Below, in pieces: positions 4,224-16,145 of a DNA stretch of 64,000 nt. A model generated the notes under the pieces. That model had not been told where the DNA came from. It worked only from the letters and a program-made list of their open reading frames with translations, and did no database searches. The DNA comes from Methanobacteriota archaeon. GTDB lineage: Archaea; Thermoplasmatota; Poseidoniia; Poseidoniales; Poseidoniaceae. The DNA lies in NCBI GenBank assembly GCA_018650165.1, contig JABIGM010000018.1:2552-66551 (forward strand). The letters run 5' to 3'. A program made the translations under genes and the position numbers. Numbering within the stretch: the stretch's first letter is position 1; each line of letters starts with the position of its first letter.

Positions 4224-5108
4224 TCACAAGTTTCTGTGAAGAGTTCCTGTTACACCATCAAGAATCCATTTTGATCCAGTACCATCACGACTAATGTGAG
4301 CAGGTACTAACACATCATATGTGTCTACAATGGCTCCTTCATTTTCGAATCTCCACCAACGAAGTAAATCCCCCATTCCATCGGAATGTGCTCGCCGTTC
4401 TGAAAGAATATCTGTGAAATCTGGCTTAGGGTTAATTTCTAAATACTCTTGATTGAGTAATGGTGATTTATCTAGTAATTCTACCTCATGTAGAAGATGG
4501 AGTCCACCACAATTCAATACCCAACGAGAAATTTCATCTTCAGCGGGTCCTTTTAGAAGACCTCTCACATTGTGAATTTTTCCTGGAATCAATACTGGCT
4601 TAGCCATTGAAATATCTAGGCCTTCGCTATCGAGTTGCGTGAAATCATTCCTCGGCTTGAGGGTGAATGGTCCAGTACCTGCAAACATTTCAGGTTCTGT
4701 TTCATTCGTAACTAATTCTTCTTCATCGATTATAACAAGGCTTCCATCAAGTACTGAATGGCCAATAAATGCAGCTAATTCATTCTGAGTCCAAATGGTC
4801 AGATTTCGTTCAACCCGCTGCGGGGTATCCTCTATATTGAAAGTTATTTTACGCTCTGCAATAATCAGGTGATCCCCACGCGGTGCATCAAACAACCATG
4901 TCTCAATGCCTGCTAAATCCAAGGGTGCAAAACCTTGTCCTGAAGTCCACACATCCATTCCATCTGACATTCCCAAATTGAAATGTTCAGGCGATACATC
5001 ATACAGACTGCCCAGCCATGTGATTACACCTGGGGAAGTGACCGGGGCTGAATCAGAATCTAGGCTAACGCCCAAACGCTTCAAAACAGCGACCAAGTCA
5101 AGGGCCAT
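4224..5108 (-). CDS. Hypothetical protein (N-terminal part weakly resembles a degenerate Mrr/restriction-endonuclease-like fold)
   Basis: 294-aa ORF filling the gap; 'LTIWTQNELAAFIG' and C-terminal 'WILDGVTG'. Confidence 0.6.
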   Translation of the reverse strand: MALDLVAVLKRLGVSLDSDSAPVTSPGVITWLGSLYDVSPEHFNLGMSDGMDVWTSGQGFAPLDLAGIETWLFDAPRGDHLIIAERKITFNIEDTPQRVERNLTIWTQNELAAFIGHSVLDGSLVIIDEEELVTNETEPEMFAGTGPFTLKPRNDFTQLDSEGLDISMAKPVLIPGKIHNVRGLLKGPAEDEISRWVLNCGGLHLLHEVELLDKSPLLNQEYLEINPKPDFTDILSERRAHSDGMGDLLRWWRFENEGAIVDTYDVLVPAHISRDGTGSKWILDGVTGTLHRNL

Positions 5109-5475: not shown

Positions 5476-7062
5476 TTACTTTTTGCCTTTTTTGGCTTTT
5501 TTGTCTTCTTCTGGGATGTAATATAACTGTACAGACCCAGTACCTAGACTGATCGGCTGTCCTACGATGATATTCTCTGCGACACCTGTTAGGTTGTCAC
5601 GTTCACCAATAATTCCAGCCTTCAATAGGTGGTTTACTGTAACTTCGAATGCTGCACGAGCAAGGATAGAGTGCTTGGTTCCAGACACACCATGGCGTCC
5701 AATAGCACGAACTTCTCCTTCGCTAGTCATTACATCTGCAACCATTAACAAGTGGCGTACGTCAACTTCTAGACGTGCTCCATCAAGTGTGGCTTGCAGT
5801 TCGTCGATAATGGCTTGACGTGCTGCTTCAATTCCAAGATACTCGTAAATTTCGATAATGTTGTTGGTGTAAGTACGTGAACGGTCGATTCCTTCCATGT
5901 CAGAAACTCTCGAAAGGTTACTACCAATCGTCGAAAGATAGTACTCGCCAGTTTTGTCATCAAGTTGAACGTTAGCACGCTCAACATTTGGAACTCCCTT
6001 CAAACGCATGTCTTTGATTTTATCTTCCAATTGAAGTAGTTCAGTGTAAGATGGTGGGTTCTCAGCAAGTGTCTTCAGGTCATCTTCAGTTTGAACACCT
6101 GGTATTAGAGTCAATACTGATGGGTTCTTCTCTTTGTCAGCCTCGACATAGAGTCGAAGTGCACGCTCGAGTTTGTCCTTGACTTCAGCCGGAGTCATTC
6201 CCTTCTGCTTCAAGTTACCTTTCTTCAATTTCAGAACCAGGCGACGCTGAGCGACATCTGTTTCAATATCAGCAATGTTCACTGTGGTTGTAATTTCAAT
6301 TGATGCTGCTAGTTTACGTGCTGCATCTGCAGAGGTACTGTTGGCTCCGTCAAGACGGATTGTCATAGTAGGCGTGTTTGGTACTTTACGTGCGTCAACA
6401 ATCTCGATAATACGCGGTAGACCCTGTGTTACGTTTACAGTTGCAACACCAGCATAGTGGAAAGTACGCATAGTCATCTGAGTACCTGGTTCTCCAATAG
6501 ATTGTGCAGTGATAATTCCTGCAGCCTCGAAAGGATCTATCTTAGCAATTTTCTGTGCTTTACCTGCCTCAACAACTAGTGCCTCAGCCTTTTTCTTAGT
6601 TAACTTTGAAATTTCACGGTCATGTACTGCGACAGTCAAATCGTGGATAGTCATCTGAGAAAATTTCAGGTCCAAAGATTCAGCTGCTGCTTTAATGGAC
6701 TTAAACACCGGGTCATCCGCAAGGTCATCGACATAAGTAGCCAATTTGATTTCAGGGTCATATGGTTCCAAGACCTGTACTGCCTTTGCTGTACGGCGGC
6801 GGCGTGTTCCTCGACGAAGTCGAACAGAAGCAATGTTTGAATTATCGCCACCTGTAGAATCTCTACTCGATGAGGATGCACCAGTAATAATTCCATGTAT
6901 TCGGGCTGCAGTGTCAGAATCGGTTTCACAGAACTGAGCAATTTCTTGTGCTGTCAGTACCTTTACGTCATCCCACTTGCGGTCATCTGCCAACTTGTGA
7001 GCAAATTCTTCAGGTACTAACATGTCCATGAGCTTCTTCTTTGTTGCACTCTTTACTACCAT
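5476..7062 (-). CDS. rpoA2: RNA polymerase subunit Rpo1C (A'') with N-terminal extension
   Basis: [44 protein letters not shown] motifs; ATG overlaps the rpoA1 stop (TGATG). Confidence 0.97.
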
Positions 7063-10000
7063 CACTCAGCACCCCCTGCTGCTGCTTCAGAATCTCCTTC
7101 GCCAATTCCATGGGAGAAGTCCTTATCCTCGCTGTCGCGGTATTCTTCTTCCTTAGTTTTGACTGGTCCATCTGTGCCTAGTGCCTCATCGACTACTACA
7201 TCGATGTTGAAAGGCTTACCATGCACACCACGGCTAGGGTCGATTCCATCCTCCCCATATGAGAATTGTATGATTCGATTTGCAGTATTTCTTACTGACA
7301 AATTTTCATCATTGTAAACCTTCAGATCATCCATTGCGTTAATCAAACGGCGCTGCATGTATCCAGACTTACTTGTTCTGACCGCTGTATCAACAAGTGA
7401 TTCACGTCCAGAAACAGATAGCATAAAGAATTCTGTAGGCTCAAGTCCACGCTTGAAAGAAGAAGAGATGAATCCCTTCTCTGGTGCACCTAGTCCGCCA
7501 CGCTTGAAGTGAGGCAGAACACGCTGGTGGTAACCACGCTCTAATCTTGCACCACGAACCTTTGCTTGTCCAATACTTCCTGCCATCATTGTCAGGTTAT
7601 CCATGGAACCACGTGCTCCAGAGATAGCCATTCCAACCGCAGTATTGTTTCGAGTCAAGAATAGTTCGTCCTTAGCCGCATCTCCTGCAGCTTGCTTACC
7701 AAGATCTAGAATGACCATGATGTTCTCCTCAAGGGTTTCCTTTGGAGTTCGCCCCGGACGTGCTTCATACCCACGACCATCTTTACCGAATTTATCTAAC
7801 TCAACCTGAACTTCAGAACGAGCTTTTGCGTTATGTCCTTCGATTTCGTTTAGGGTCTTTTCAGAAAGGTCTTCATCGTCAATTCCAGTTGTGAAACCAA
7901 GTGAAGTACACGCTGCAATCGATAGACGAGTGAACTCATCTAGGAATTTAGCGCCCTTTGTCGAACCATTTGTCTGTACAATGGCGTCAAGAAGACGACC
8001 GTCTTCAGCACCAATTGCACGCTTATCTAGAGTTCCGGATACCTGACCGTTCTTGACAATAACGTCGTCGTTTGAACGGCTCTTGAAACGTAGATGAATG
8101 TTATTTGGTATGATTACAGAAATCAAATCTTCACCTTTGAAATATTCGCCGCTAGGACCTTTGTGGACCTTTGGTAGTTCACCAGTAAAACCAATGTTAC
8201 CAAGAATCTCTAGACCATTACGCTTTGAGATTTGAGTATCTGGTCTCGATAGAAGGTATGCGCCAGAAATGTGGTCGTGGATTCCACCAATAACTGCTCC
8301 ACCATAACGCGGTGTCAGAATATGTTCTTGTACGCGCATCAAGATTTTAGCTTCTGCACGTGCTTCTTCTCCTTGAATAACGTGCAAGTTCATCTCGTCA
8401 CCATCGAAATCTGCGTTGTAAGGAGTACATACTGCCAGATTGAATCTGAAAGTGTGGCCTTCCATTACGCGAACTTCGTGAACCATCATTGACATACGGT
8501 GCAATGAAGGTTGTCGGTTGAAGATTGCAACATCTCCATCGATTAAGTGTCTCTCTACCAGAAGACCCGGTTTTGGATTACGGTTCATATCAACTGTAGC
8601 CAGGCGATCTTCAACACGAGTTCTCTCATCCCATTCATTGTCTGGACTACCACAGTGTGGACAAGCAACATCTAGATGCTCTGGGTATTCAGAATCAGGA
8701 TTTGCAAGTTCGAACTTCCAGCGGTGGTGTAGAACTGCACGTGGATCATCTTCATCCAAGGGGTTACCATCAACATCTTCTCCACGAAGGTTTGCGATAG
8801 TAGCGGCCTCATCTATAGCATAACTGACGAGTTCTTCGCCACCGGCTACTGCACCTTCACGGGTGATGAATTTCTTGACAACTAATCCAGGCAAGAAGTT
8901 AGGTGCTGGCAGTACTGAATGTAGGTCGAACCTTGTTGTTGTCTCTTCCATACATTCTGGGTTGTGACAACGGTAGCCTGCATTGATTAGACGGCTGCGC
9001 TCATTGATTCTTACACGACGGTTGTCACCACGTATTACGTAGTTTACACCAGGATGTACATCAGGTCCACGAAGGATCATTTGACGCATTTGTTCACGGT
9101 TTCGAGTTGTTACACGAATTGGAACGGTTAGTTCCTTAGCGATCTTAGTTGGAACTCCAACTTCATTGATACCAAGATAAGGATCTGGCGAGATAACAGA
9201 ACGTGCACAGAAGTTAACACGCTTACCAGAAAGGTTGGAACGGAAACGTCCTTCCTTACCCTTTAGACGCTGAGTTAAGGTCTTCAGTGTTCTTCCAGAG
9301 CGGTGTCTTGCAGGAGGAATTCCACTGGTTTGGTTATCGAAGTAAGTAGTAACGTGGTACTGCAACAATTCCCATAGATCTTCAACAATCAACTGAGGTG
9401 CACCTGCATCACGGTTTTCACGTAGACGTTGGTTGATTCTTAGAACGTCAACCAACTTGTGAGTCAAGTCGTCTTCAGAGCGGTCTCCCGAATCCAGAGT
9501 AATTGAGGGTCGTACAGTAATTGGGGGAACTGGTAGAACCTTCAAAATAATCCATTCTGGACGGTTTTCTTTGTGCATTCCAAGGAAAATCAAGTGATCT
9601 TGTGGTATGCCTTGAAGCCATTCACGAATATCACGAGCGTTTAATTTCCTCTCAATTGCTTTGCCGCCACCTTGTGCTGCAATGTTTTCCTTGAAGGTAG
9701 TAGGCTTGTCTAGGACAATCTTTCCTTGCTGGGACTTACAGTGCATACAAATGGTACGCTTAGCTTCCGAAGTTTTCTTCTCAATCTCCTTGATAATCTT
9801 GGAGAATTCAGTTGAACCTACACCGTGCTTTGTGATCAAATCACGGACACGGGCTCGGTAGAAATCTTGCTCAGAAAGTCCGGGATTCGAAGGGTGAGTA
9901 CCTTCAGCATCGTGCAACAGAATCTTGCTACATGAATTACATGTAGCCTTCAATGAAGTCTTTATCAGATTCACGAAACCAATGTGAACTACAGGTAGTT

Positions 10001-10253
10001 CCAATTGGATATGACCGAAGTGACCTGGGCTTTCATCATACTTACAGTTGTCAGTTGGACAAAGAAGACCTGGCTCAATAACACCCATGTGAGGGTCCAT
10101 CAATCCTTGACGGTAAGCGTGACCATCGTCCTTGTAGGTATCTGCAGTCTTAACTTCAACAGATGACATCTTACGAATCTCTGTTGGGTCCATCAATCCA
10201 AAGCGGATGCTAGCGATTCTCTTTGGAATCATTGTTGTGCTATTTCGACTCAT
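7062..10253 (-). CDS. rpoA1: RNA polymerase subunit Rpo1N (A')
   Basis: [10 protein letters not shown] catalytic motif, [39 protein letters not shown]. Confidence 0.98.
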
Positions 10254-13200
10254 CTGCGGTCCTCCAGTTCTAGACGCATTGCCACTCCGAGACTCTTCAT
10301 CTCATCCAGTAGTAGCTTGAATGCATAAGAAGTCTGTACCTTGTAGACTTCTGCTCCATCACCATGAATTGGTGAAACATATGTACGGCGCTTTGGATCA
10401 AACCAAGCAACGTGACCAGATTGTGCGCATACGAACAAGTCGATACCGTCGGACTCGTCCAGCAAACGGTCTTTGATGACCATAGATGCACCATGGGCAA
10501 TCAAACAGTCACGCTCCATTTCACCAAACCTTAGACCGCCTTGTCGGGCACGTCCTTCGGTTGGCTGGCGGGTTAGAATCTGTACACGTCCACGGCTGCG
10601 AGCATGTATCTTTCCAGATACCATGTGGTGTAACTTCTGGTAGTAGATACATCCTACGAAAATATCTGCAGGGTAAGTTTCACCGGTCTCTCCGTTAATC
10701 ATTGGTTCACGGCCAGTATGGTCGTATCCATTTCGAACTAGACTGTCACGTAGACTGCCTTCTTTTTCTCCACGGAATGCTGTACCATCGATTCTTCGCC
10801 CTTCGAGAGAACCGACCTTACCACCAATCATCTCAAGAACGTGAGCTACTGTCATTCGAGACGGAATAGCGTGCGGGTTGATGATTAGGTCTGGAACGAT
10901 TCCATCACGAGTAAATGGTAAGTCTTCAGCATCGACTAGACGACCGATAACTCCCTTTTGTCCGTGGCGTGAAGCGAACTTGTCTCCAACTTCAGGTACC
11001 TTGTGTGAACGGACCATTGTTCGAACAAGACGTCCAGAATCTAGAGATTCTGTTACGAATACGTTCTCGACCCATCCCTTCTCACCATGACGAATAGGCA
11101 TAGATGATTCACGGCGTTCTTGTGCTTGTAGGAATGCTCCTGCACCTGTCTCTTCTAAGAATCGAGGAGGGCTTGTCTTTCCAACAAGTACATCTCCTCC
11201 TTCAAGATACTTTTCTGGGCGTGGCAATCCATCGCCTTCGAGGTGATCATAAGCACCTACAGGCTTCAGACCTTTGACTTCTTCAAGGCCTGTTCCTGGG
11301 ATTTCAATCTCTTCGACCTGTCCACCTGGGAAACGTCGACGTTCAGCATTGTATGTACGGTTGAACGTGGAACGTCCAAGTGCACGCTGAATACTAGAAC
11401 GGTTCATGATTACAGCGTCTTGCATGTTGTAGCCATGCAAACTCATAACTGCAACGATGAAGTTCTGTCCACCTGGGCGGCTATCGAACTTCGTAGTGTC
11501 CATTGCTTGGGTATGAGTAATGGAGCGCTGCGGATAATGCAGGATATGCAGTCTTGTATCTGGGCGCAGACGGTAGTTTGCGCTTGGTAGACCCAAGGAT
11601 TGCTTGACCATTGCTGTTCCACCTGTAACACGGGGTGTAGAGTTGTGTTCGGGGTAAGGAATTAGTGAAGCACATACACCTAGAACCAATTGAGGATCTA
11701 TCTCACAATGTGTGTGCTCTGGGGTGTAAAGCAAGTCTACATCGAATACTGCGGTTGCTTTCGTACCATTTGGCATGGTAATGTTAGCCTGTAGTTTTGC
11801 AGATGTTGCTGCAGGCTCGCCAAGGTTCAACCAAGTAACTGCGGAATGGCTCAATGGCCTTCCTGCGAATTCGTTACCTTCTGGTACAACTTCTGGTAGA
11901 ACATATGGACGAGGTGAGATATAGAGGTCTTCTTCTTCCTCTGCATCTATCCACTCAACTACACCTTCATTGACTAAATCATTGAAAGTAAGTTCTCCGG
12001 ATGAAACCATCTCAAGATGCTTCTGAGTGAGTCTTGGTGCACCATCATATAGAATTAAGACAGGTCGTAGTATTCGTCCCTTATCTGTATTGATGAAGAT
12101 ATCACGGTTTGGTGCATCATATCTGATAGAGACTTCAGGGCGGATTGCACCACGACGGCGCGCATTCTTGAACTGAGTTACAAGATTTTTACCGCGCTTG
12201 TGGATTCCGTAAATGTCACCATTTACGTGAATTCTATCACCATCAGCCCAATCATCGGGTTGGTAAACGTCCATTTCATCCAAGCGTGCTCGGATTTCGG
12301 TTTCTGGTACTGCTTCAGAGACATCGATCATCTGAGCTGCATTCTTTACCAGGCCACAGTTCTGACCTTCCGGGGTCTCGTTAGGACACAAACGTCCCCA
12401 CTGAGTCGGGTGCAGGTCACGTGCTTCGAAGTGAGGTTGGCTTCTAACAAGAGGACTGGTCACTCGGCGCATGTGAGATAGTGCAGATAAGAAAGTAGTT
12501 CGGTCGAGAAGTTGGCTGACACCAGATCTTCCGCCAACCCAGTTTCCAGTTGCTAGAGCATGCATAATTTTGCTTGTTAGAACATCTGGCCTGAGACATG
12601 ATGTGATTTTTAACTCGCGCTTTCGGTTGTGGTGGCGTTCAAGTTGGTACTTCAGATCACGAGCTAGTTGACCCATTGAAACTCGGAACAAGTCTTCAAT
12701 CAAATCTCCTGCAAGACGAACACGCTTGTTTGCATAGTGGTCTTTGTCGTTTGGCTTACGGCTAGTGATAGCCATTTCCAAAACTTGACGAACAATTCTT
12801 CCAAGGAAGATAGCCTTCTTCTTACGATCTTCATATTGGTCACCCAAGTGAGGCAGAAGTTCGCGGTCAAGTAACTGAGTGACACGTGCTTCACGGTATT
12901 CCTTTTGTTGTCCTGCGGCGAATTTCTTTTGTAGCCACTCATGTGCTTCCTCAAGTGAATCAACAGCATATTCTTCATTGTCTTTCAGTTCGTTGATGTT
13001 TGCAACAATGAATTTGAAAGTTTCAGTTGGACCTGCGATAGCTTGGAACAAATCTTGGTCGTTCTCAATTCCTAGTGCTCTCATCAAAAGCACAACTGGG
13101 ATTGCAGTTGTTCCAGCGGTACTAATTTTGACCATTAGCATACCGTCACGGCGCTTTTCTACAGTTAGAGGCTTTCTCATACCATCTTTCTGCGAGAAAA

Positions 13201-13861
13201 TCTTAGCGACCTCTGTCTGCTTTGCATAACGATTGTTGATTTCAACAGTTACACGGTTAGGTGCAAGGTCTTCCATTGAGATTAGAACACGCTCTGTACC
13301 GTTAATGATAAAGTAGCCACCTGGGTCAAGAGGGTCTTCGCCCTTTGTCCTTAGTAGCCCGTCTAACATCTTCCGATCTTCGTCAGAGGTTGTTGCATGA
13401 AGAACACGGTCTCCTGCAATGTGGTTTGAATGTAAGTTACATCTACGGCTGCGAACCATGATTGGCATATTTCCGACCTGCACTCCCTTCTCAGGCTGCC
13501 CAGGTACTCCATTACGGTAGATTGTGAAATCCATACGTACAGGTGACATGTAAGTCAACTTACGTAGACGGCATTCCATTGGTGATGACGGATGGTCACT
13601 TCCATCTGCTTCACGAATCGTCGGTTCACCGAGTTGGATATTCTTCACACGGATGATGATATCTTGGTCGATTACGTCAAGTTTGACTAGACCGCCTTTG
13701 TCATCTTCAACTTCTTCGTCGGTACCTACGCGGATACCACGTACGATTTTCTCCATTCGAGACAGAGAGTTATCTCCAGCAGGAATACAATCATCGTATG
13801 ATGCTAACTGGTGATTAACCAGGCTACGTTCTCTGAAAAAAGATTCAATAATTTCCTTCAT
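10250..13861 (-). CDS. rpoB: RNA polymerase subunit Rpo2 (B, unsplit)
   Basis: GGYFIINGTERV, ETPEGQNCGLVKN, GDKFASRHGQKG, GGLRFGEMERD. Confidence 0.98.
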   Translation of the reverse strand: MKEIIESFFRERSLVNHQLASYDDCIPAGDNSLSRMEKIVRGIRVGTDEEVEDDKGGLVKLDVIDQDIIIRVKNIQLGEPTIREADGSDHPSSPMECRLRKLTYMSPVRMDFTIYRNGVPGQPEKGVQVGNMPIMVRSRRCNLHSNHIAGDRVLHATTSDEDRKMLDGLLRTKGEDPLDPGGYFIINGTERVLISMEDLAPNRVTVEINNRYAKQTEVAKIFSQKDGMRKPLTVEKRRDGMLMVKISTAGTTAIPVVLLMRALGIENDQDLFQAIAGPTETFKFIVANINELKDNEEYAVDSLEEAHEWLQKKFAAGQQKEYREARVTQLLDRELLPHLGDQYEDRKKKAIFLGRIVRQVLEMAITSRKPNDKDHYANKRVRLAGDLIEDLFRVSMGQLARDLKYQLERHHNRKRELKITSCLRPDVLTSKIMHALATGNWVGGRSGVSQLLDRTTFLSALSHMRRVTSPLVRSQPHFEARDLHPTQWGRLCPNETPEGQNCGLVKNAAQMIDVSEAVPETEIRARLDEMDVYQPDDWADGDRIHVNGDIYGIHKRGKNLVTQFKNARRRGAIRPEVSIRYDAPNRDIFINTDKGRILRPVLILYDGAPRLTQKHLEMVSSGELTFNDLVNEGVVEWIDAEEEEDLYISPRPYVLPEVVPEGNEFAGRPLSHSAVTWLNLGEPAATSAKLQANITMPNGTKATAVFDVDLLYTPEHTHCEIDPQLVLGVCASLIPYPEHNSTPRVTGGTAMVKQSLGLPSANYRLRPDTRLHILHYPQRSITHTQAMDTTKFDSRPGGQNFIVAVMSLHGYNMQDAVIMNRSSIQRALGRSTFNRTYNAERRRFPGGQVEEIEIPGTGLEEVKGLKPVGAYDHLEGDGLPRPEKYLEGGDVLVGKTSPPRFLEETGAGAFLQAQERRESSMPIRHGEKGWVENVFVTESLDSGRLVRTMVRSHKVPEVGDKFASRHGQKGVIGRLVDAEDLPFTRDGIVPDLIINPHAIPSRMTVAHVLEMIGGKVGSLEGRRIDGTAFRGEKEGSLRDSLVRNGYDHTGREPMINGETGETYPADIFVGCIYYQKLHHMVSGKIHARSRGRVQILTRQPTEGRARQGGLRFGEMERDCLIAHGASMVIKDRLLDESDGIDLFVCAQSGHVAWFDPKRRTYVSPIHGDGAEVYKVQTSYAFKLLLDEMKSLGVAMRLELEDRR

Positions 13862-13875
13862 GATACCACCTCAGC

Positions 13876-14496
13876 TCAGCTGCCCTCCACTATCAGTCGA
13901 TAAGCAACTGATTTACCAGCAGATGGTGATTTACGAATAACCTTGAGTACACGGTCAGATAGCCATCCTGCGGGAAGAGGGGTAATTTCTTCATCGCCTT
14001 CAGACTCTTTTTCTCGTGCTGACTCAACGGTTTCCTTAATCACTTGGACAACTGGATCGGTAATGAGAATCTTCGGAAGAAGTTCTTTTGCAAGGCGTGG
14101 TTCGCCAGTTTCTTCGTCGGTAGCAAGAAGACCCCATGGGGCAAGGGCTTCTTCTTCATCCTCTACGGGTACAAGTTCCTGGTGAGGAACGAGAATGTGA
14201 TTTAGTGCATTGAATTTTGTTGCAGCCAAATTCATATCATCATCATCAAGAGCTTTCTTTGAGATGGTAATTTTACGACTACGGCGCTTTTGACGGCGGT
14301 TTCCAAGTTCTGCAAGAGCATTCATTGCACCAGTGAAAATTTCGTCATCCTTCGAAACTCCAAGACACGAGGCAATTTCATCCGCCGGCATGGCTTTTAT
14401 GTCCGTCATATTACGGTCAGTAGCCAATTTGTGAGCGTATTCCTCAGCAATTCCCATTTCCATCAAGCGCTTCTTGGTTGCCGACTTAACTACCAA
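13876..14496 (-). CDS. rpoH: RNA polymerase subunit Rpo5 (H) with ~90-aa N-terminal extension
   Basis: HILVPHQEL, LPKILITDPV, KVIRKSPSAGKSVAYRLI; TTG start after a GGGGGA SD; first gene of the rpo operon. Confidence 0.92.
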   Translation of the reverse strand: MVVKSATKKRLMEMGIAEEYAHKLATDRNMTDIKAMPADEIASCLGVSKDDEIFTGAMNALAELGNRRQKRRSRKITISKKALDDDDMNLAATKFNALNHILVPHQELVPVEDEEEALAPWGLLATDEETGEPRLAKELLPKILITDPVVQVIKETVESAREKESEGDEEITPLPAGWLSDRVLKVIRKSPSAGKSVAYRLIVEGS

Positions 14497-14545
14497 ATAA
14501 ATTCCCCCATAAGCCCGCCATACACCGGTCCTGCTTCTTGTCAGG

Positions 14546-14619
14546 CGGGCCTGACGGGGTTCGAACCCGCGACCGTCCGGTTAAAAGCCGGACGCTCTAC
14601 CTGACTAAGCTACAGGCCC
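14546..14619 (-). tRNA. tRNA-Lys (anticodon UUU), no intron, CCA not fully encoded
   Basis: Reverse complement GGGCCTGTAGCTTAGTCAGGTAGAGCGTCCGGCTTTTAACCGGACGGTCGCGGGTTCGAACCCCGTCAGGCCCG folds into a cloverleaf; anticodon stem TCCGG/CCGGA, loop CTTTTAA; GTTCGAA T-loop. Confidence 0.97.
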
Positions 14620-14792: not shown

Positions 14793-16145
14793 ATGGCGGA
14801 AAGGGAAGTATTTACTGCCGAAGATGCGGCATTAGAGGTTGGACGCCTTGAGCGAGCCCCCAGTACATCTTTTTGGTCACCGCGTGAGGGCTTCAACTTC
14901 AAATTAATCATACCCCCAACTGTTTATCCACCAAGAGAAGATACTAACCTTTTAGCAAAGAGAATCGTGGCATTAGGCCCAGGACGAGGTAGAACATTTC
15001 TTGAGATTGGAAGCGGTTCTGGCGCACTTTGCGTACTTGCATCTTCTATGGGATGGAAAGTGAGCGGGTGCGACATTAACCCCTTCGCCGTAGCCGCCAC
15101 TAGAGGCAATTTGGAGAACAATGGTTTTACAGGAGAAATTCGCGAAGGAGGGGTTGGCCCAGAACCATTTCCCTTTGAGAAATCATATGATTTGATAATT
15201 TGGAATTTACCATATATTGTGCCACAAGAAATCGAACAGGTTCTAGGGCCGATGGAAGAAGCTGCGCTAATCGATACTGATGACCAGGGGTTGGGTAATA
15301 GGTTTCTATGTAGCATCACCAGTAACCACTTACTCGCCCCGAAGGGTAGAGTTCTTGCATTAGGCAGAGAAAATTCAGTAGTTGATACAAAATATTTAGC
15401 ACACCGCGTTTGGGATGAAATTGAATTTGAAGATGGAGAAAGGTTGGAATTAACATGCTATTGGCGGCCATTCGAAGGAGCCACTAGCACATTCCTGGAA
15501 AGCACGGGTTCTACCAATGAAGATCTCTTTGCTAAAACAGGAATCGGCACCCACATTTCTACGAGTTGGCAAACGGCAGGCAGAGGGAGAAGAGGGCGGA
15601 CTTGGACCTCTATAGAAGGTTCTTATGCGGGGTCATGGATTGTCGCAGAAGGTTCGGAAATTAATCCCGGGCACCTACAATTATCCGGTGGCTTAGCTGT
15701 ACTAAAATCTCTAAATAAAAGTGAATTAAGATTGAAATGGCCAAATGACATATTAATCGGTAAAAGAAAGGTTTGTGGTGTTTTAGCAGAAGGGAGAACT
15801 TTCGAAGATGGAACACGAGTAGTGCTTGGTTTTGGAATTAATCTCAAATCAGGGGAACATAACGTTGATGTAGAAATTGCAACACTTGAGGAAATAATTA
15901 ATATCGAGCATAATGAATTTGATGGAAGGTTAAATTGTGAACTCGCATCCTTACTCGAATCTTTAGATGACATCCCCCCAATACGGTATTCGGAAATACG
16001 AAGTGAAGTATTGAAAGAGATGCGCCGTATGGGCAAACCAATGTTCAAGGGTGAAATTTATGATGATTTCAATTTGAATAATTCTGGTGAATTAATTCTT
16101 GGAACTAATATTGTGGATGATGGTGAAGAGATTTCTTGGAACTAA
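14793..16145 (+). CDS. Fusion of HemK/PrmC-like SAM methyltransferase and biotin-protein ligase (BirA catalytic domain)
   Basis: VYPPREDT, LEIGSGSG, DINP, WNLPY (MTase); STNED, QTAGRGRRGRTW, LKWPNDI, KVCGVL, GFGINL (BPL); start moved to ATG 14793 because the longer ORF overlaps the tRNA. Confidence 0.85.
   Translation: MAEREVFTAEDAALEVGRLERAPSTSFWSPREGFNFKLIIPPTVYPPREDTNLLAKRIVALGPGRGRTFLEIGSGSGALCVLASSMGWKVSGCDINPFAVAATRGNLENNGFTGEIREGGVGPEPFPFEKSYDLIIWNLPYIVPQEIEQVLGPMEEAALIDTDDQGLGNRFLCSITSNHLLAPKGRVLALGRENSVVDTKYLAHRVWDEIEFEDGERLELTCYWRPFEGATSTFLESTGSTNEDLFAKTGIGTHISTSWQTAGRGRRGRTWTSIEGSYAGSWIVAEGSEINPGHLQLSGGLAVLKSLNKSELRLKWPNDILIGKRKVCGVLAEGRTFEDGTRVVLGFGINLKSGEHNVDVEIATLEEIINIEHNEFDGRLNCELASLLESLDDIPPIRYSEIRSEVLKEMRRMGKPMFKGEIYDDFNLNNSGELILGTNIVDDGEEISWN

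Follow-up and report, generated by a model that had tools for sequence, protein, structure and literature searches.

A duplicated N-terminal module on the Rpo5 and Rpo1C subunits of Poseidoniales RNA polymerase: a candidate docking handle at the DNA-entry jaw

The C-terminal domain of the bacterial RNA polymerase alpha subunit (alphaCTD) is a small domain of the helix-hairpin-helix (HhH) type, present twice per enzyme on a flexible linker, which docks regulators and contacts DNA, and the repeats of NusA are acidic protein-docking modules. Archaeal subunit H (Rpo5) is described as having no N-terminal domain in two sources (PMC2847245, PMC3906176). The first of these reports that H is strongly associated with subunit A'' (Rpo1C) and cross-links to downstream DNA at +10 to +20, and that eukaryotic Rpb5 has an N-terminal domain which also binds regulators (PMC2847245). 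A lineage-specific small helical element, Rpo13, lies beside Rpo5 and sends a highly basic tail into the DNA entry channel, according to PMC2675907. Here we analyse a 64,000 nt stretch of contig JABIGM010000018.1 (hereafter the window) from a member of the archaeal order Poseidoniales, in which the Rpo5 and Rpo1C subunits begin with the same module of about 65 residues, tentatively interpreted as a docking handle. The Poseidoniales, or Marine Group II archaea, are uncultured and among the most abundant surface-ocean microbes, and we know of nothing on what sets their transcription apart from that in model archaea.

All coordinates refer to the whole window, and the polymerase genes all lie on its minus strand. 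The rpo5 (rpoH) open reading frame (ORF; 13876..14496) encodes 206 aa from a TTG start at 14496, and the rpo1C (rpoA'') ORF (5476..7062) encodes 528 aa from an ATG. In a single pairwise BLASTP comparison, the N-termini of the two proteins were alike over ~65 residues, with 32 of 62 positions identical (E 7e-14). The module occupies residues 1-65 of Rpo5 (14302..14496), the most constrained part being residues 1-34 (14395..14496), and residues 1-64 of Rpo1C (6871..7062). An initial annotation of this DNA had counted 27 identities in 42 residues by hand, and our recount from the translations agrees, with 27 identical residues within positions 1-45. Across the same 45 codons the nucleotide identity is 87/135, and 15 of the 27 identical residues use the same codon whilst 12 use a different one, so the resemblance is one between the proteins and does not stem from repeated DNA. 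The protein-level selection proposed on the strength of such synonymous differences is backed by our codon count, as well as by the tree of the copies and the constraint profile described below. What that annotation overlooked is that the unit under constraint comprises only the first ~34 residues, and that this unit also heads many unrelated non-polymerase proteins.

Outside the module, both subunits matched known families. Rpo5 matched PF01191 at 40.9 bits (cut-off 23.5) over residues 95-202. The 80-position NCBIfam model NF007129 covered residues 93-204 at 46 bits, under its equivalog cut-off of 83, a shortfall that is probably due to lineage-specific insertions. The full-length structural model of Rpo5 matched solved archaeal H chains by Foldseek (E 2.7e-5 to 9e-4, TMt 0.74-0.78), and solved H and Rpb5 chains aligned across ~100-112 columns only; judged from the TM-scores, since the listing gives no ranges, these matches would correspond to the C-terminal domain. 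Solved chains, the 80-position model and the literature agree that canonical archaeal H has ~75-80 residues. They also bear out the earlier description of Rpo5 as normally ~75-85 aa long and without an Rpb5 jaw domain (PMC2847245, PMC3906176), and its place beside A'' near downstream DNA is borne out by PMC2847245. At 206 aa, with ~92 extra N-terminal residues, the protein in the window exceeds the solved H chains of 74-78 residues, and it is an H orthologue plus an added module rather than a canonical H. Residues 66-99 (14200..14301) form a basic tether that contains RRQKRRSRK and a conserved I-T-I motif, and residues 100-206 with the stop codon (13876..14199) are the canonical H/Rpb5 C-terminal assembly domain. 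This Rpb5-type domain measures ~112 residues, against models of 73-80 positions, and in f1, a family of the order, an extra insert of 9 to 10 residues is found in the Rpo5 core, this genus excepted; the core itself bears lineage-specific insertions.

Rpo1C scored 425.7 bits against the 420.65 required by the A'' equivalog TIGR02389, with residues 139-514 aligned to profile positions 7-365 of 367, and also matched PF04998 (E 2.1e-49). Its first ~132 residues lie outside the TIGR02389 model. Canonical A'' occupies residues 133-528 with the stop codon (5476..6666), and residues 65-132 (6667..6870) read in translation as a tether, Ser-rich and then Arg-rich, that leads into it. The Arg-rich tracts first noticed behind both domains were found again, as RRQKRRSRK in Rpo5 and as a second tract in Rpo1C.

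AlphaFold2, run with alignments, predicted a block of five helices in each copy. In Rpo5 these span residues 5-13, 18-24, 30-34, 38-45 and 52-65, with a predicted local distance difference test (pLDDT) score of 82-84 for the block; the isolated Rpo1C module (mean pLDDT 81.7) has helices at 6-13, 18-25, 30-34, 38-45 and 49-64. VIA-align, a search independent of Foldseek, returned nearly only SAM or (HhH)2 domains across 50 rows for the Rpo1C module, with Z 6.3-8.0 at a root-mean-square deviation (rmsd) of 1.8-3.0 A over 57-66 of 66 residues, although such Z values lie in a range that may be generic for helical models. The highest Z values were 8.0 for a Scm/Sfmbt SAM entry (rmsd 2.0 A, 63 residues), 7.9 for FANCM, 7.6 for NusA and 7.5 for XPF, and the top matches aligned 63-66 of 66 residues at 2.0-2.6 A. 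Foldseek searches of the Protein Data Bank (PDB) with the isolated module gave a best E of 0.26, the best rows being FANCM (HhH)2, NusA repeats, SAM domains, Hef and XPF. On these models the module likely belongs to the SAM/(HhH)2 fold class, in line with the small helical, duplicated domain envisaged by the initial annotation. The viral fold library BFVD gave a best E of 0.81 against the module.

Sequence searches assigned the module to no credible family in Pfam at E<=10, NCBIfam or the PDB sequences, and the whole Rpo5 protein had no Pfam match in the N-terminal module at E<=1. The sole PDB sequence match under E 0.01 was a designed repeat protein, with 16 residues matched. Among 32 module members, the first of which had no Pfam family at E<=10, two touched HHH_5 (best E 0.049) and one touched SAM_1 (E 0.13), and no Pfam HhH family was reached at threshold. 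Six of the 32 touched Sigma70_r4_2 (best E 0.0033), an identity that we rejected because the matches are sub-threshold and have no backing from the fold search.

The tethers differ in composition from the folded part. The module is acidic in both copies, with isoelectric points (pI) of 4.9 and 5.5, whereas the Rpo5 tether (residues 66-99) has a pI of 11.0 with 10 Lys or Arg in 34 residues, and residues 65-120 of the Rpo1C tether hold 10 Lys or Arg at a pI of 8.2. Both Arg/Lys-rich tethers are predicted to be disordered, the pLDDT of the Rpo5 tether falling below 50 at residues 68-79, 86-91 and 93-98. Within this tether, all 23 orthologues keep I76, T77 and I78.

None of the described systems matches this arrangement in full. 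Like the modules as predicted, alphaCTD is a small, flexibly linked helical domain of HhH type with two copies per enzyme, and the fold neighbours include 2jzb (Z 6.7), an entry of alphaCTD in complex with NusA-AR2, although which of its chains was matched is ambiguous. However, alphaCTD forms the C-terminus of a single subunit type and faces the promoter on the upstream side, whereas the modules are at the N-termini of two different subunits of the downstream jaw, and the two are unrelated in sequence (no Pfam family was reached at threshold). The eukaryotic Rpb5 jaw, too, is a domain added to the N-terminus of the subunit that corresponds to Rpo5, close to downstream DNA in the lower jaw. 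That domain is packed, whereas the module is tethered, duplicated on Rpo1C and of other fold and sequence. No Pfam family for the Rpb5 N-domain was found on Rpo5 at E<=1, the matches listed for the isolated module include no Rpb5 chain, and eukaryotic Rpb5 chains align over only ~100-107 columns of the Rpo5 model, presumably its C-terminal domain as the listing is without ranges. The likeness to Rpo13 is one of position and charge only, going by PMC2675907. Rpo13, found in Sulfolobales and Desulfurococcales, is a separate single-copy subunit with a helix-turn-helix core from another phylum, whereas the module is fused to two subunits. Paired (HhH)2 and SAM domains (XPF-ERCC1, FANCM-FAAP24, Hef, NusA AR1/AR2 and Scm-Sfmbt SAM) have a five-helix architecture like that predicted for the module, but the module belongs to none of their sequence families. 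To our knowledge, the strictly N-terminal position and invariant first nine residues of the module have no counterpart.

The extensions are present throughout the Poseidoniales genomes that we searched, and close homologues bear the source name Candidatus Poseidoniales. The genome of the window (80% complete) holds exactly these two module copies. A query with the Rpo5 module matched 41 of 41 genomes of the order, 39 with exactly two copies, one with three (G008, where the third is a second assembly copy) and one with a single copy (G035); five genomes that had earlier seemed to have more held exactly two each when searched with the module profile. A class-wide search found the module in 65/65 genomes of family f1 and 40/40 of f3, and a separate search found it in 2/2 of f2. 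In the same class-wide search the sister families gave matches in only 4/43 genomes of f4, at E 0.19-0.75, and in 0/2 of f5. Among 61 genomes sampled across the phylum, the profile found two copies in each of nine members of the order and, in the rest, two marginal matches unrelated to polymerase (E 0.02 and 0.04). There is no credible match to the module in the sister families or in the rest of the phylum sample.

A tree of the module sets the Rpo1C copies apart from the Rpo5 copies (support 100/99), and within each of the two clades the branching follows the families of the order. Separate clades that each repeat this structure mean that a single duplication took place before Poseidoniales diversified and was followed by no gene conversion. 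The constraint is uneven along the protein: between the two large families, Rpo5 identity drops from 0.69 in residues 1-34 to 0.28 in residues 35-65, and stands at 0.47 in the tether and 0.58 in the assembly domain. Residues 1-34 are, in these alignments, more conserved than the polymerase-binding core of the subunit itself.

The same ~34 residues were found on proteins unrelated to polymerase. Among 1.84 billion representatives, the module profile matched 205 proteins at E<=0.001, and the figures that follow describe the best 150 of these 205. They comprise 54 fragments of <=110 aa, 12 Rpo1C, 10 Rpo5 and 74 others, and 139 of the 150 carry the handle from residue 1 on. By their tails, the 74 others form 14 multi-member clusters and 28 singletons. 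Two of the 14 clusters look by eye like Rpo1C tether fragments, which leaves 12 families with tails unrelated to polymerase, and within these 12 the tail identity ranges from 27 to 90%. Across 51 non-polymerase carriers, conservation is strong at positions 1-28 and declines beyond about position 34. These carriers were found only in raw marine metagenomes, and neither Pfam nor PHROGs gave a match at threshold for the scanned representatives of five carrier families or for six further carriers.

Two carriers illustrate the range of contexts. In P0092 (851 aa) the handle is internal and precedes an ATPase of the type found in defence systems (NsnB 2e-38, with AriA- and GajA-like matches). In P0059, encoded on the plus strand of metagenomic contig L088 (10001-11239), the first ~88 residues resemble the Rpo5 module plus tether and are 75% identical to a metagenomic Rpo5, but a Cys-rich tail of ~325 residues stands in place of the polymerase-binding domain. 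Its neighbours on L088 include a ThiF-family gene and are otherwise ORFans or sub-threshold matches to PHROGs and Pfam. One 616 aa neighbour had a single homologue in 401 genomes of the order (G475), without synteny and with a G+C content of 55% against 42.5%.

With a confidence a little short of even, we favour the reading that the module would serve as a docking handle, carried by two flexible arms on the jaw where DNA enters. H and A'' would adjoin in the lower jaw on the DNA-entry side, each beginning with a five-helix domain of ~65 residues that hangs on an Arg/Lys-rich tether of ~35-70 residues. Contacts would be made by the first ~34 residues, a short basic N-terminal tail and the first helix-hairpin-helix. 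Through this surface, the handle would bind one common partner, which could lie on the polymerase itself, be a further copy of the module or be some other host factor. The basic tethers could make contact with downstream DNA. The ~34 residues on unrelated proteins would then allow these to reach that partner as well, or to compete for it. From the published structures and cross-links of other archaea, namely the association of H with A'', the H cross-link at +10 to +20 and the siting of Rpo13, both arms should emerge at the DNA-entry face; we infer the docking function and the nature of the partner.

Several observations lead us to this preference. The most conserved N-terminal piece is near-identical in both subunits and in the unrelated carriers, its hydrophobic M-V-V start is invariant, and the folded domain is acidic. 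Together with the basic tethers, the acidic folded part and the M-V-V start fit a protein interface better than a clamp on the DNA backbone, and the occurrence of the handle on many unrelated non-polymerase proteins speaks for a shared docking handle more than for a plain jaw. Several of the fold neighbours, moreover, work by pairing with a like domain, and another copy of the module is among the candidate partners. An N-terminal domain on H across a whole order, duplicated onto A'', stands against a literature in which H is without one, and the module would be a third way to decorate the DNA-entry face, beside the eukaryotic Rpb5 jaw and the Rpo13 of Sulfolobales. We did not find the module described in the literature on N-terminal extensions of archaeal H or on Poseidoniales RNA polymerase, a survey that lay outside subscription journals and supplements and in which the Poseidoniales and Marine Group II polymerase papers were judged by titles and listed abstracts.

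It is also possible, though doubtful, that the ~34 residues are an address tag for the transcription machinery that viruses, plasmids or defence islands have copied onto at least 12 unrelated effector families. Effectors that bear the tag could then bind to the polymerase of the host or push its arms aside. If true, this would amount to a modular system of host takeover or surveillance with no described archaeal counterpart, and a handle truly common to proteins of mobile elements would be a sequence-searchable marker for viruses and plasmids and for their polymerase-aimed proteins.

A number of points weigh against the docking handle and its wider spread. HhH motifs are classical DNA binders, and eight conserved Lys or Arg residues lie within the handle. 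The fold scores are modest (Z no higher than 8.0, Foldseek E 0.26), and such a Z may mean no more than a common helical arrangement. Scans of IMG/VR with the module alignment, P0103, P0076 and alignment A3 gave no confirmed match, a tblastn search of GenBank phages with P0085 found none, and the tails-only alignment A5 gave 35 pattern matches in GTDB species genomes, none of which was confirmed. With the alignment A3 profile on 301 genomes of the order, none of the 150 matches listed (there were 199 more) reached past profile position 76; the listed matches all lay in Rpo1C-type frames, a few of which were truncated by contig ends. P0138 gave 0 matches at E<=1e-22 on 401 genomes of the order, in a run made without a positive control. 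Some of the 28 singletons may be frameshifted polymerase fragments or assembly chimeras. To call the carriers products of mobile elements is a guess from these absences and from one ORFan contig. We did not adopt a viral label for them, given the lack of a confirmed match in IMG/VR, phages or GTDB and the largely ORFan content of L088. A search of the ESM Atlas with P0103 returned no usable match.

The rival that survives best, although we consider it somewhat unlikely, is that the modules are non-specific, HhH-type binders of duplex DNA which, with their Arg-rich tethers, hold downstream DNA, as an independent counterpart of the eukaryotic Rpb5 jaw or the Rpo13 of Sulfolobales; the other carriers would then be plain DNA-binding proteins. 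The fold neighbours do include DNA-binding (HhH)2 domains (FANCM with double-stranded DNA, XPF, Hef, DisA, topoisomerase V, UvrC and ligase A), and the first hairpin fits G-h-[G/A]-x-x-x-A-x-x-h-h when the module alignment is read against the consensus. The two members that touch HHH_5 point the same way, as do the strongly basic tethers, the cross-links of H to downstream DNA and the precedent of Rpo13 with its basic tail in the DNA channel (PMC2847245, PMC2675907). However, the folded domain is net acidic and reaches no Pfam HhH family at threshold, and in Rpo1C of the window's own genus the hairpin glycine is replaced (D-M-L-V-P for D-L-G-I) with the rest kept. Moreover, residues 1-28 drift less across unrelated carriers than is usual for proteins that bind the DNA backbone.

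It is unlikely that the Rpo5 and Rpo1C modules instead bind each other, in the manner of XPF-ERCC1 (HhH)2, as a strap across the lower jaw that stabilizes assembly or closes the DNA channel, with foreign carriers pairing with one of the arms. The initial annotation had put forward both such pairing and a grip on downstream DNA. Pairing would account for two copies per enzyme on subunits that touch (PMC2847245). Both paralogues have been kept throughout the history of the order with second halves that differ, as would be expected of a heterodimer. Many of the fold neighbours are obligate pairs, and by their entry titles several pair with a like domain (FANCM-FAAP24, XPF-ERCC1, Scm-Sfmbt SAM, and NusA-AR2 with alphaCTD). 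Yet the near-identity of residues 1-34 in the two copies suggests that both have the same partner rather than each other, and the sister families get by with a plain 81 aa Rpo5 next to a long Rpo1C extension of another kind.

These sister families bear on a further explanation, in which the module is a passive, lineage-specific decoration left over from domain accretion on Rpo1C, with no specific role in the jaw, and its likeness in other proteins comes from recombination with polymerase genes. In f4 and f5 (L065-L069), where Rpo5 has the plain form, Rpo1C measures 758-860 aa and carries a different N-terminal extension of ~370-430 aa, whose N-terminus aligned only weakly with that of the module (E 0.0017 by hhalign, at 15% probability), a lead only. 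Accretion would also suit the spread of Rpo1C-holding open frames, from 357 to 970 aa among the 61 phylum genomes. We regard passive decoration as improbable all the same: residues 1-34 are conserved beyond the subunit core, both copies occur in every sufficiently complete genome of the order searched, identical residues are encoded by differing codons, and the carrier families keep the handle whilst their tails diverge. The f4/f5 extension has an HhH-like N-terminal start, a conserved middle domain whose sequence looks beta-rich and has no family match, and another HhH-like stretch, which in L069 matched HHH_5 at E 0.0037. Extensions, or possibly inteins, seem to be common on Rpo1C across the phylum, and the existing A'' model of 860 positions may, we presume, reflect an intein-containing form.

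Lastly, we examined whether the long starts are genuine. Residues 1-11 of Rpo5 are conserved in 23/23 aligned orthologues, the first codon of the long form is ATG in 19/23, and the Rpo1C paralogue begins in the same register; all three observations speak for the long Rpo5 form. RNA-library contigs from three studies span the 5' part of rpo5, and those from two runs reach past the TTG; this is weak support, because such contigs cannot show where transcripts start or end and DNA carry-over is possible. An annotation artefact, with true starts downstream (for example at Met12 of Rpo5) and an untranslated shared stretch, would suit the TTG start in this genome and the 15 among 120 homologues listed that are called at 195-198 aa, from the internal Met12, but is very hard to reconcile with amino acid conservation from residue 1 in both paralogues, synonymous-type changes between the copies and an Rpo1C ATG that overlaps the rpoA' stop codon in the ORF list.

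The genes of the locus follow this order on the minus strand: tRNA-Lys, rpo5, an unsplit rpoB, rpoA', rpo1C and then a gene of the L7Ae/L30e family. The tRNA-Lys (UUU; 14544..14619, ARAGORN) is immediately upstream of rpo5 and serves as context only. Between the two tagged genes lie rpoB (Rpo2; 10250..13861, 1203 aa), identified from its sequence and place in the operon, and rpoA' (Rpo1N; 7062..10253, 1063 aa), which has Pfam Rpb1 domains 1-5. In rpoA' the match to Rpb1 domain 2 is split in two around residues ~425-545 (8620-8990, minus strand). The gap of ~120-130 residues between the pieces has Cys pairs (C-x-N-P-E-C near 429 and C-P-H-C at 531) and weak zinc-ribbon matches, and looks like a lineage-specific insertion.

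In other archaea nusA sits at the end of the polymerase operon. Here, right after the L7Ae/L30e-family gene, the end of the operon holds an ORF of 294 aa (4224-5108, minus strand) without a Pfam family. On the plus strand, a single ORF (14793-16145) fuses a small methyltransferase domain (MTS/PrmA-like) with a biotin/lipoate protein ligase domain.

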